From assembly GCA_964479955.1 (NCBI GenBank), contig CAYZNK010000001.1, positions 77,073 through 141,072 on the forward strand: 64,000 nucleotides of DNA, in the 5' to 3' direction. Shown in pieces: positions 26,160 through 54,744 of the stretch; position 1 is the first letter of the stretch, and the number at the start of each line of letters is the position of its first letter. The translations under genes and the position numbers were made by a program. Origin of the DNA: an uncultured Candidatus Saccharibacteria bacterium (lineage in GTDB: Bacteria; Patescibacteriota; Minisyncoccia; Minisyncoccales; Staskawiczbacteraceae). Under the pieces are notes generated by a model, which was not told where the DNA came from, made no database searches, and saw only the letters and a list, made by a program, of their open reading frames with translations.

Positions 26160-26173
26160 ATTATGTTTTTTAG

Positions 26174-26518
26174 TGGAAGTGGGGATGTTGAAATCCCGTC
26201 TGAAAAATTTTTTAAAATAATTCTACAAGTTTAGTTAATTTTGTTGTTCGGGCATTAAATAAAAAATTAACAAAATTTTTAATGCCTTATCTTCTTAATT
26301 TCAGCTGCTTTCCGAAGACTAAAGCAGCCCATCCTAATAATATAACACCTTTATCCGTTTATTAGGAGTCAACGGAAAAGATGCGGCATTAAGCGTATGC
26401 TAACGCCGGTTGCTTATTGAATAAATTAGCAATTATGTTTTTCTCAGAAGATTAATGAGCTGTGAGAAAGCTCAACCTGCCTTATTTTAAAGAACGATCC
26501 ATCGAAACATTCACTCCC
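26174..26518 (-). ncRNA. ssrA: tmRNA (SsrA), about 345 nt
   Basis: Minus-strand 5' GGGAGUG pairs with 3' CACUUCC, giving the G3-U alanine identity pair, then discriminator A. T-arm-like GGGAU-UUCAAC-AUCCC. UUCGAUGG near the 5' end. Internal tag frame GCU AAU UUA UUC AAU AAG CAA CCG GCG UUA GCA UAC GCU UAA = ANLFNKQPALAYA* (26430->26389). Directly downstream of smpB. Confidence 0.82.
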
Positions 26519-48890: not shown

Positions 48891-49511
48891 ATGACTAATT
48901 CAGTCACGACCCAGTCCACCATCACCAATGGTCAGATCGGACAGATCAATGACCGTCTCGCTACCAAGTTGCGCGAGTCAGGCTTGCCCGCGGAGGTGGT
49001 GCAAATCGTCCTGTCCACTCCTGGTGGTAAGGTTATCGACGAGATGGTTATTGCACTCCGTCGCCGAGTGGAGGCCATCAGTAAGATGGTCGTCCGCCGC
49101 GTGAAGGTGAACCGCACTCGCACGCCGCAAGGGGCTATCCATGCCACCGGGCGTACCGAGTACCTTAACGACGAGGTGGTGAACAGCATGCCTCATAGCA
49201 CGCAAGAGGAAGTGGAGGTTTGCTTCTTCCCGCTCGAGAAGTTCACCGGCGTCGCCGATGTGCAGAAGATGCTCGAAGATCATGGCCTTGAGCCCGACCC
49301 CTACGCCTTGGCGGCTGTCAACGAAGAGGATCCATCTTTCGCCGACATTTATCCCAACAATACCCAGTGGGCGGACAGCAACGGCAATCGCTGCTTTCTC
49401 GCCTTCGGCAGGTTCGGCGGCGGGCGCAAGGTGTACTGCTACCGTAGTGAGGACGGCTGGCGTGGCAGCTGGTGGATCGGCGGCGTCCGCAAGCAATCTT
49501 CGGGCGCTTGA
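48891..49511 (+). CDS. DGR target (variable) protein, 206 aa, GC-rich, no signal peptide or TM; C-terminal variable region
   Basis: The last ~35 codons are the VR copy of the downstream template repeat. ATG start, strong terminator 48 nt after the stop. No named domain recognised in the N-terminal 165 aa. Confidence 0.85.
   Translation: MTNSVTTQSTITNGQIGQINDRLATKLRESGLPAEVVQIVLSTPGGKVIDEMVIALRRRVEAISKMVVRRVKVNRTRTPQGAIHATGRTEYLNDEVVNSMPHSTQEEVEVCFFPLEKFTGVADVQKMLEDHGLEPDPYALAAVNEEDPSFADIYPNNTQWADSNGNRCFLAFGRFGGGRKVYCYRSEDGWRGSWWIGGVRKQSSGA
49390..49494 (+). repeat. DGR variable repeat (VR), 105 bp, with invariant GC-rich 3' end (IMH-like ctggtggatcggcggcgtccgcaa)
   Basis: Aligns without gaps to 49851-49955 (offset 461). 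19 mismatches by hand count, all where the TR copy has A. Confidence 0.9.
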
Positions 49512-49558
49512 CACCCTGGACTCTCGGTTCTTTCGTTTCGTTTTGGTCCCTTGGACAA

Positions 49559-49597
49559 AGCCCCGTTTCGCGTAAGCGAAGCGGGGCTGATTTTTTT
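49559..49597 (+). terminator. Strong intrinsic terminator / VR-flanking hairpin (13-bp stem, GTAA tetraloop, T7)
   Basis: agccccgtttcgc-gtaa-gcgaagcggggct followed by gattttttt. Confidence 0.8.
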
Positions 49598-49850
49598 ACT
49601 AAAGAATGTTATTATATATTCAGATAATAGGCTAATATGTCCGCGGCTAAGGCTTCGGGCGGCCGAATTCCGAAATCAGATAAAGCGCGGAGTTCTGAAG
49701 GCTAAGGCTGACAGAAGAGTCGCTCCTGATTTCTAAAAAATGAAGATTGCTTGGTGCAAAGCGCTATCGCATTAAAGATGCGGAATTAGATACAGCCTTG
49801 ATATCGCGAAAGCTTCGATGGGCAGTGGTAAGGGGGGCGCTTTGCATGAT

Positions 49851-49955
49851 GCTGCTATCTCACCTTCAACAGGTTCAACGACAAGCGCAAGGTGAACTGC
49901 AACCGTAATGAGAACGACTGGAATGACAACTGGTGGATCGGCGGCGTCCGCAAAC
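49851..49955 (+). repeat. DGR template repeat (TR), 105 bp, rich in AAC/AAT codons in the target reading frame
   Basis: In the target frame it reads CYLTFNRFNDKRKVNCNRNENDWNDNWWIGGVRK. It carries an adenine at all 19 positions that differ from VR. Confidence 0.9.
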
Positions 49956-49965
49956 CATTTCATTT

Positions 49966-49984
49966 CCCGCCTAAGGCGGGTTTT
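49966..49984. terminator. Hairpin cccgcc-taa-ggcggg plus TTTT, immediately 3' of TR and abutting the avd stop codon
   Basis: 6-bp GC stem at 49966-49980 and a T-run at 49981-49984 on the plus strand. The avd stop (TAA) is the complement of 49983-49985. Confidence 0.6.
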
Positions 49985-50312
49985 ACTTTACTGCTTTAAT
50001 CCAACCCCCAAGCATCCTTCCGATTTCATTTGTTTTCTCAGAGATTAGAATATATCTCTTGTTATCAAGGCTTTTAATCTCCCATGCGATTTGTAAAAAG
50101 AATTTTAATAAATCAAGTTTGGCAGAAGCGTTTTTAAGGCAAACCATCTTCTCTAATCTGTCTGAATTACCCGCTCTAATTGTTAGCTCAATAGTTTCTA
50201 AAAATAATGAATCAATTTTAGTTCCCATCGTATATTTTGAATCCTTAGGGAAGCTTTTCAGAAATCCATACCACGTTTTATAAATTATGACCAGCTTCTG
50301 TATGAGTGTCAA
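49983..50312 (-). CDS. avd: Avd-like DGR accessory protein (four-helix-bundle, 23S rRNA IVS protein family)
   Basis: 109 aa. The pattern ...YGFLKSFPKDSKYTMGTKIDSLFLETIELTIRA...LDLLKFFLQIAWEIKSL...EIGRMLGGWIK matches Avd/PF05635-type proteins. TTG start. Opposite strand to TR and RT. Confidence 0.75.
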   Translation of the reverse strand: MTLIQKLVIIYKTWYGFLKSFPKDSKYTMGTKIDSLFLETIELTIRAGNSDRLEKMVCLKNASAKLDLLKFFLQIAWEIKSLDNKRYILISEKTNEIGRMLGGWIKAVK

Positions 50313-50323
50313 ATTAAAACTGG

Positions 50324-50341
50324 TTTTTTTTTGGGGGGGGG
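50324..50341. repeat. T9G9 homopolymer tract in the divergent avd / RT intergenic region
   Basis: ggtttttttttgggggggggtatt. Lies 11 nt upstream of the avd start (as C9A9 on that strand) and 24 nt upstream of the RT ATG. Confidence 0.9.
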
Positions 50342-50365
50342 TATTAAAGGCCTAAGGCTATTGTC

Positions 50366-51340
50366 ATGAAAAATATTTTTATTCATAAATTTGAAAACAT
50401 CATAAGCGTTGATAATATTCTGGAAGCCTGGCAGGAATTCCTCAAAGGCAAGAAAAACAAGCCTGACGTTCAAGAATTTTCTCTTCGCTTAATGGATAAT
50501 ATTTTTAATTTGCACTACGAATTATTAAATCATATATATAAACACGGAAAATATCAAAAGTTTAAGATAAACGATCCAAAGCCAAGGATAATTCACAAAG
50601 CAAGCGTAAGGGACAGGCTATTGCATCATGCCATATATCGCAAACTGTATCCGTTTTTTGATAAAAAGTTTATATCGGATTCCTATTCCTGCCGGAACAA
50701 TAAAGGAACTCACAAAGCATTAAGCCAATTCAAAAAATATTGTTATGGCGTTTCTAAAAACAACACGAATCAATGCTGGATTTTAAAATGCGACATCAAA
50801 AAATTCTTTGCAAGTATTGACCAGAATATATTGATAAAGATTCTGGATTCCCGCTTTCGCGGGAACGACACTATGTGGTTGCTAAAAGAAATTATTCTCA
50901 GTTTTAAACCAAACGGATTACCCTTGGGAAACCTCACAAGTCAACTCTTTGCAAATGTTTATTTAAACGAATTTGACCAGTTCACAAAACACAAGCTAAA
51001 AGTAAAATACTATGTCAGATACGCAGATGACTTTGTGTTTTTATCTCGAGACAAAAAATATTTGGAAAATTTGATTCTCAAAATACAAAACTTTTTACAA
51101 AACAAATTAAAATTAATACTTCACCCCGACAAAATATTTATTAAAACAATTTACTCTGGAATAGATTTTCTTGGGTGGGTTAACTTCAAAGACCACAGGG
51201 TTTTAAGAACTAAAACAAAACAGAGGATGTTAAACAGGATAAAAAGCGCTCCAAACGCAGAAACTATAAATTCTTATCTGGGGCTTTTAAAACACGGGAA
51301 TAGTGGTAGAATAAAAGAGAATATTTTAAATAAAATTTAA
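50366..51340 (+). CDS. DGR-type reverse transcriptase
   Basis: RT motifs PRIIHKASVRDRLLHH (1), SYSCRNNKGTHKA (2), LKCDIKKFFASID (3), GLPLGNLTSQLFANVYLNEFD (4, the DGR-diagnostic [ILV]GxxxSQ), RYADDFVF (5), HPDK (6), and GIDFLGW (7). At 324 aa there is no maturase or endonuclease domain. Confidence 0.9.
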   Translation: MKNIFIHKFENIISVDNILEAWQEFLKGKKNKPDVQEFSLRLMDNIFNLHYELLNHIYKHGKYQKFKINDPKPRIIHKASVRDRLLHHAIYRKLYPFFDKKFISDSYSCRNNKGTHKALSQFKKYCYGVSKNNTNQCWILKCDIKKFFASIDQNILIKILDSRFRGNDTMWLLKEIILSFKPNGLPLGNLTSQLFANVYLNEFDQFTKHKLKVKYYVRYADDFVFLSRDKKYLENLILKIQNFLQNKLKLILHPDKIFIKTIYSGIDFLGWVNFKDHRVLRTKTKQRMLNRIKSAPNAETINSYLGLLKHGNSGRIKENILNKI

Positions 51341-54660: not shown

Positions 54661-54744
54661 TGCCCGAGGTGGGAGTTGAACCCACAATTCCGTAAGGAAA
54701 TGCGATTTTGAGTCGCACGCGTATGCCAATTCCGCCACTCGGGC
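54661..54744 (-). tRNA. tRNA-Leu (anticodon CAA), type II with long variable arm
   Basis: Hand fold: acceptor GCCCGAG/CTCGGGC, discriminator A, anticodon stem TGCGA/TCGCA with loop CT-CAA-AA, long extra arm, T-arm GTGGG-TTCAACT-CCCAC. CCA is not encoded. Confidence 0.88.

Follow-up and report, generated by a model that had tools for sequence, protein, structure and literature searches.

The window, a 64-kb stretch of DNA, carries a DGR whose parts are collected in the table below. An RT gene lies next to a reversed avd, and both are accompanied by a TR/VR pair that differs mainly at TR adenines: the two 108-nt repeats are 81% identical, and 21 of their 27 mismatches fall at TR adenines. Architecture B3, that is TR-(avd)-RT, accounts for 90% of CPR DGRs according to the gene-order part of the survey by Wu et al. 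(2018, PMC5758913). The window is likewise ordered target gene with VR, TR, reversed avd and RT, and it likewise has adenine-specific TR/VR differences and hairpins after VR and TR. The locus is confirmed as a CPR-type DGR of architecture B3. No repeat tract, avd leader or overlap of avd with RT is mentioned on those pages of the survey that give the gene order.

Table. Positions of the DGR parts and of the two homopolymer runs in the window
Feature	Position	Strand	Remarks
DGR target gene	48891..49511	+	VR inside at 49390-49497; 13-bp hairpin downstream at 49559-49588
TR	49851..49958	+	108-nt repeat compared with VR; GC hairpin and T-run after it, 49966-49980
avd core, four-helix-bundle Avd domain	49983..50312	-	Pfam bAvd E = 3.7e-20; NCBIfam DivGenRetAVD 78.7 bits
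avd 5' leader ORF	50309..50386	-	ATG 50386-50384 (probable start); reads MNKNIFHDNSLRPLIPPPKKKPVLI*; out of frame with the avd core as assembled
A9 in avd sense (T9 on the plus strand)	50324..50332	-	second slippery run; Lys-Lys-Lys in the leader frame; role inferred
C9 in avd sense (G9 on the RT-sense strand)	50333..50341	-	candidate slippage switch; Pro-Pro-Pro in the avd leader
DGR RT	50366..51340	+	RVT_1 E = 1.1e-21; codons 1-7 (50366-50386) antisense to the avd leader

The target gene and TR form a GC-rich island (48900-49980; 57-62% GC per 200-nt window, compared with 34.5% for the genome), unlike avd and RT, which are as AT-rich as the remaining genome. The target protein matched no Pfam or NCBIfam family; in one relative (L005) a homolog of it, 50% identical, lies 3.3 kb from avd. 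The GC-rich hairpin after VR has a 4-nt loop and resembles the homing-promoting hairpin/cruciform of the Bordetella phage DGR. The 6-bp GC hairpin and T-run that directly follow TR are terminator-like and stand between TR and the antisense avd. A 9-mer, GCCTAAGGC, occurs twice, at 49968-49976 in the hairpin after TR and at 50351-50359 in the stretch that separates the tract from the RT start. Flanking avd is an inverted repeat (49994-50009 / 50334-50349), whose G/C part is explained by Gly-Gly-Trp codons; a recent inversion of avd between the two arms was ruled out by the divergent layout of all relatives and the known B3 architecture. Rfam families were matched at two places in the window, a tmRNA gene (26171-26518, minus strand, 102.5 bits) and a tRNA gene (54661-54744, minus strand), and none near the DGR locus. 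Exact-protein database look-ups with the Avd and RT of the window returned no match, and a scan of viral contigs for relatives of the locus found none.

Between the avd and RT cores the window reads ...AAAACTGG TTTTTTTTT GGGGGGGGG TATTAAAG..., with nine T followed by nine G. An earlier note on this DNA had placed a T9G9 tract at 50324-50341, at 11 nt from a TTG at 50312 and 24 nt from the RT ATG at 50366, and both the position and the distances hold when the sequence is re-read. It had also called a run of nine G unexpected in so AT-rich a genome, which is borne out: G9 is the sole G or C run of at least 8 nt in the window, where an iid model expects 0.015 G runs of at least 9 nt. With C9/G9 here and G8-G12 in the relatives, the run has the length, about 8 nt or more, at which the G/C runs of contingency loci are able to slip. 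The T9 half does not belong to the conserved feature. The window has seven such runs, three of T9 (about 1.4 expected) and four of A9 (about 2.4 expected), which is unremarkable; among the related loci T9 is found in the window only, and L012 has TT at its position. T9 is incidental.

The probable start of avd and what may set its frame

The tract had been described as lying in a 53-nt intergenic region upstream of an avd TTG start, and we consider both parts of this description to be probably wrong. In relatives the codon aligned with the TTG of the window is TTG, TTA, CTG, CTA, CTT, ATC or ATT, with ATG and GTG never seen there; from the tract to the Avd core many loci are devoid of any canonical start, and a conserved leader reads through the tract. 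In all three tract-less loci compared (L006, L008 and L015; 3/3), avd is in frame with an ATG located 5-12 codons upstream, which is its only start; in L006 and L015 this ATG lies within the RT gene, antisense to the RT His7 codon.

We compared the 120 closest Avd proteins (61-100% identical). An N-terminal leader, in most cases about 20 residues long, is present in 69 of the 120, a count biased toward long protein calls, and has the consensus M-x-Q-(L/N)-N-F-H-N-Q-N-N-x-x-x-N-P-P-P-x-Q-F-(N/S/G)-L-(S/T)-L-I-Q-K-L (examples are MIQNNFHNQNIYSSNPPPPR... and MEQNTFHSQNNLAFNPPPQTF...). The tract is read as PP(P) in 49/120, and in 20/120 it is absent from the leader or interrupted, yet the leader is in frame; the other 51/120 are called from a Leu codon or are fragments of 81-107 aa. 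All of the aligned sequences (44/44) have a Phe two residues ahead of the core "L". In the AlphaFold2 model of one homolog (P0138; mean pLDDT 84.9), helix 1 begins at Q19, ahead of the "L" codon, and disorder is predicted for residues 1-16.

The opposite strand is informative as well. The RT His7 codon, CAT at 50384-50386, is the complement of the avd ATG. It is CAT in 12/12 loci having this His, including loci of 50-55% GC, against 53% CAT among the other His codons of the same RT genes. This usage fits a constraint that would keep an ATG on the opposite strand, and AT-rich codon bias at the 5' end may contribute to it. The first seven leader residues are not independent evidence, because a frame in codon register with RT on the opposite strand should be open in any case. 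From this convergent, indirect evidence on the sequence level we consider it highly probable that the tract is part of the avd ORF, 3' of the start codon, where its length would set the frame. The ORF probably begins at the leader ATG given in the table, runs through the tract and overlaps RT codons 1-7 head-to-head.

The public call for the avd of the window (P0139, NCBI) is 100% identical to it and truncated, starting from Met29 with 81 aa. For many relatives, too, the avd call is a mere fragment of 92-107 aa, and avd is systematically mis-annotated in this DGR family.

In the window, the leader stop TGA (50311-50309) overlaps the TTG (50312-50310) as TTGA. Addition of one C or removal of two fuses the leader to the core and gives MNKNIFHDNSLRPLIPP(P)QKKTSFNLTLIQKLV..., which continues through the normal Avd stop; this repaired fusion aligns with the family leader M-x-Q-x-N-F-H...PLI-PPP-x-x-F-N-L. 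As +1 or -2 bases are needed for full-length Avd, the assembled state, C9 followed by A9, is an OFF frame under this reading of the start. When all the loci were tabulated, exactly one length class (mod 3) was found in almost every one to give an ATG-initiated homologous leader.

In the RT-anchored sample, on which avd calls have no bearing, avd is in frame in only about 6-7 of the 18-19 loci that have a tract. A share of one-third would also be expected if the frame were random or neutral, or if a switch were at mutational equilibrium. We dropped the in-frame fraction as proof of coding, since the RT-anchored share is about one-third and the protein list is biased. The matching ON frames of avd and RT were dropped as coding evidence too, because both depend on the same codon-aligned antisense register.

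The RT of the window's subfamily starts at a conserved MKxxxxH downstream of the tract, and 84/120 homologs start with MKxxxxH; only avd is therefore frame-dependent in this subfamily. It had been suggested that the tract toggles Avd and/or RT. For avd this suggestion is supported, by way of the frame; for RT the frame would play no part in the window's subfamily, where the RT start is downstream of the tract. Among the relatives, L003, L005, L007/L016/L017, L022/L023, L024 and L032 have an RT without a canonical in-frame start downstream of the repeat. Loci of the L007 type and the (GA)n loci have an RT start only 5' of the tract, and it belongs to the very length class in which avd is on; at these junctions one repeat may frame avd and RT alike, or initiation may be non-canonical.

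Conservation and length variation of the tract

Scans of genome and metagenome collections, anchored on RT, gave 36 related loci (RT identity 38-79%), which belong to Saccharibacteria, Staskawiczbacteria, Paceibacterota and Kaiserbacteria or lie on unassigned contigs. In 28/28 relatives with both genes on the contig, avd is divergent from RT. A comparison of tracts across related genomes, which the earlier note had proposed as a check, came out in favour of the tract: G8-G12 is present at the same junction in most of the distinct cassettes of relatives, which number about 24, come from several CPR phyla and have an RT identity of 55-79%. In most of the loci found by the scans the run is G8-G11 and stands 6-12 nt from the first aligned Avd codon; the distance is larger in L009 and L019. 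Five relatives have other repeats at the position of the tract, (GA)10-13 in L022, L023, L024 and L031 and (CT)9 in L025, and in the (GA)n loci the repeat fills almost the whole gap between the avd and RT cores. The tract-less loci are L006, L008/L030 and L015. As both the type and the strand of the repeat vary among relatives, what is conserved at the junction is a simple-sequence repeat. A pure C-run has been kept across phyla although CCC makes up only 23% of Pro codons in the genome of the window.

Length was compared within five groups of near-identical contigs from different samples, retrieved by an exactly identical RT protein. The P0034 group (L037-L045) has G10 three times, G11 three times and G12 twice, and in one scaffold an N gap begins within the tract. 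The P0052 group (L046-L053) has G10 seven times and G9 once, and L007/L016/L017 have G11 once and G10 twice. In the P0228 group (L054-L063) C9 is found nine times and C8 once. The P0021/P0023 group (L065-L082) has G9 eight times, G10 three times, G11 twice and G12 once, and three of its contigs go no further than the tract. Over 4 kb the contigs of the P0034 group have no indel other than the tract, and L039 and L040 are otherwise identical. Rare indels outside the tract were seen in two other contigs: a 2-nt insertion near position 114 of L059, which splits the RT gene into two calls, and a 141-nt deletion at 3412-3552 of L050, in the adjoining uvrC-like gene.

In four of the five groups we checked control homopolymers, all of them 7-8 nt and so shorter than a 9-nt run, and 0/21 vary. 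Because no run of at least 9 nt is among these 21, homopolymer error remains partly possible, and part of the length differences could stem from Illumina or nanopore homopolymer error or from assembler choices. The recurrence of the same tract lengths in independent assemblies argues against random error. On balance the tract is very probably length-polymorphic in nature.

The lengths found in near-identical genomes include both ON and OFF alleles, as is the case at contingency loci. In the P0034 group G12 is ON and G10 and G11 are OFF; in the P0052 group G10 is ON and G9 OFF. In the P0021/P0023 group G10 is ON, and the ON product is the database protein P0196. All contigs of the P0228 group are OFF, and the related L064 is ON.

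VRs differ among near-identical contigs of relatives, mostly at TR-A sites (L054-L063, about 1024-1150), and 7 of the 9 VR differences between L007 (1-45) and L017 (3155-3199) are at TR-adenine positions. As read from the assembled contigs, these differences point to DGR activity in the recent past of populations that have avd out of frame in the consensus. With such VR diversity in populations of OFF consensus, the OFF state may be leaky or the switch imperfect; alternatively, diversification may occur in a minority of ON cells. In the window, the TTG that overlaps the leader stop could allow reinitiation, and A9 and C9 may permit slippage. Beyond about 1150, the contigs of the P0228 group carry two very divergent target-gene haplotypes.

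The proposed switch and alternative readings

We propose that avd is under a frameshift-type phase switch operated by the C-run and set to OFF in the window; for this full model we estimate a probability of about 0.6. Translation of avd would begin at the ATG that stands opposite the RT His7 codon as its reverse complement, pass through a disordered leader of about 15-20 residues, read the C-run as Pro-Pro-Pro and enter Avd helix 1 at Q/x-F-N/S/G-L. Through slipped-strand mispairing the run would gain or lose a base, and the Avd core would thereby enter or leave the frame of its start codon. In the Bordetella phage DGR, Avd is required together with RT for cDNA synthesis. Given this requirement, tract length would gate mutagenic retrohoming on and off in subpopulations. 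The compared contigs and proteins establish, on the level at which they were read, a conserved tract, its natural length polymorphism, ON and OFF alleles of one locus and a homologous translated leader. Under the frameshift model the switching would be reversible and of high frequency, it would affect diversification, and the arrangement would be adaptive. The earlier proposal of a phase-variation switch for the DGR is thus kept as regards a conserved, length-polymorphic repeat with ON and OFF alleles, and altered in its promoter/UTR mechanism, to which we prefer a frameshift in avd as the likelier one.

In that mechanism avd and RT would share a divergent control region, within which tract length alters the -35/-10 spacing or the structure of the leader and with it the transcription or translation of avd, RT or both. 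A -10-like TAnnnT does usually stand directly after the tract on the RT strand (TAGACT, TACTAT, TACGTT, TAGTTT, TATTAA, TATTAG), the lengths keep to a narrow range of 8-12, an effect of the tract on RT is possible, and there is a likeness to the poly-G promoter-spacer switches of Neisseria. The matching half of such a promoter was not found: inspection of the relatives by eye found no consistent -35-like hexamer at 16-18 nt, a consensus scan found no plus-strand promoter upstream of the window RT, and a -35 and -10 pair at near 17 nt was found neither in the window nor in the relatives. At 20-26 nt, the (GA)10-13 repeats exceed what a 17-nt spacer could hold. The model would also leave unexplained the Leu/Ile codons that are no starts, the tract-less loci that are in frame and the conserved translated leader, which together place the tract inside avd coding sequence, and we regard control through a promoter or UTR as unlikely. 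The chances are slightly better, and still low, that the tract is real and no regulatory device, being a mutational liability in a dispensable leader or a poly-proline linker; the out-of-frame copies would then be genes in decay or leaky ones, and Avd would be made via reinitiation or slippage in any case. A neutral frame would give the one-third share of in-frame loci, VRs differ among populations with an OFF consensus, the leader is predicted to be disordered, its stop in the window overlaps a TTG, and runs such as A9 and C9 can cause RNA-polymerase slippage. A mere liability accords poorly with the retention of a pure C-run across phyla in spite of the low use of CCC, and with the fact that where the run is absent other repeat types stand in rather than ordinary sequence. 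Many OFF loci, moreover, have a non-initiating Leu codon (CTA, TTA, CTT) and no alternative start. Offsets of +1 and -1 both occur among the relatives, which also speaks against a fixed programmed frameshift.

Two further readings set the length variation or the coding role aside. If the variation were a sequencing or assembly artefact, the tract would be stable in vivo and Avd would be made from the TTG at 50312. Errors are indeed common in long G/C homopolymers, several contigs break off at the tract, an N gap stands there in one scaffold, the controls include no homopolymer of at least 9 nt, and L005 may be a long-read assembly. Against this, the lengths recur across independent assemblies (C9 in 9 samples, G9 in 8, and G10, G11 and G12 repeatedly), the in-frame allele matches the independently called database proteins P0196 and P0144, and the coding evidence is independent of length variation; we consider an artefact improbable. 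Least probable of all appears to be a role in nucleic-acid structure, in which a transcript of TR, antisense avd and RT would have its G-run paired over a long range with the C-rich 3' end of avd, or a G-quadruplex or H-DNA would form. The two arms of the inverted repeat are 81% complementary and include a 7-bp ATTAAAG/CTTTAAT helix, a C-rich site recurs about 335 nt upstream in relatives, and G-runs and (GA)n are both homopurine. The C-rich partner is, however, accounted for by the Gly-Gly-Trp codons of Avd, cognate and non-cognate pairs have nearly the same mean energy (-22.4 and -22.2 kcal/mol; permutation p = 0.42), and the repeat of L025 is on the opposite strand. We also tried the G-run or (GA)n as a Shine-Dalgarno-like element for RT and rejected it, the spacing to the start being variable (5-36 nt) and the window being without Shine-Dalgarno usage. 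GGAG or GAGG is present in 0/57 upstream regions of window ORFs of at least 150 aa, and the organism of the window appears not to use Shine-Dalgarno sites. Many genes of the window have a TATAAT- or TAAT-like AT-rich sequence directly 5' of the ATG.

More tentatively, and at slightly less than even odds, the frameshift switch may extend across several CPR phyla as a hypermutable avd repeat that gates the DGR, a mutator switch on a mutator. Most cells would be off and a stochastic minority would produce bursts of target variation, and in L003, L005, L007 and the (GA)n loci one tract may frame both genes.

Significance and relation to known systems

CPR bacteria are the largest natural reservoir of DGRs. 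The control of DGR activity is poorly understood, and surveys sort many DGRs into active and inactive ones without a mechanism. If the frameshift model is true, a heritable and reversible one-base switch on avd would explain the on/off heterogeneity of CPR DGRs in a testable way, as tract length would be readable directly in metagenomic reads and could be set against VR diversity in time series. Such a switch would, besides, bring a hypermutation system, and not a surface structure, under repeat-mediated phase variation and thereby widen the classes of gene controlled in this way. The findings bear on annotation as well: avd is routinely mis-called here (as an 81-aa fragment for the gene of the window, and from a Leu codon for others), and DGR surveys or engineering with CPR cassettes should consider the upstream avd ATG and the state of the tract. 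Among the papers of the searched library we found no work tying DGRs or Avd to repeat-mediated switching, frameshifts or avd-RT overlap.

Three kinds of known system invite comparison. Transcriptional slippage and programmed frameshifting operate in dnaX, in IS-element transposases and in the poly(A) rescue of insect endosymbionts. As in those genes, a homopolymer separates two frames here, and the A9 of the window is of a length known to provoke RNA-polymerase slippage. Such systems have a fixed, conserved offset, whereas in-frame, +1 and -1 states are all found among our relatives, and no stimulatory signal was identified.

Promoter-spacer repeat switches include the poly-G/C tracts of Neisseria porA and opc and the (TA)n between the divergent Haemophilus genes hifA and hifB. 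The avd-RT junction is like these in having a repeat between divergent genes, with a -10-like hexamer after the tract on one strand. It is unlike them in that a matching -35 is lacking, the dinucleotide versions of the repeat are too long and the tract is placed inside avd.

In its probable mode of working the junction is like intragenic homopolymer phase variation, known from poly-G/C runs in Neisseria lgt and hmbR and in surface-modification genes of Campylobacter and Helicobacter. In both cases the start is followed closely by a G/C run of 8-12 nt, one-base changes shift the frame, ON and OFF alleles coexist naturally, and the type of repeat turns over between lineages. The present case differs in that avd is an accessory gene of targeted hypermutation and not a surface or restriction-modification gene, its hosts are uncultivated CPR bacteria, and its leader overlaps a divergent RT in antisense. 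In length, position within the ORF, polymorphism and the presence of ON and OFF alleles, the arrangement as deduced from the contigs agrees with intragenic homopolymer phase variation.
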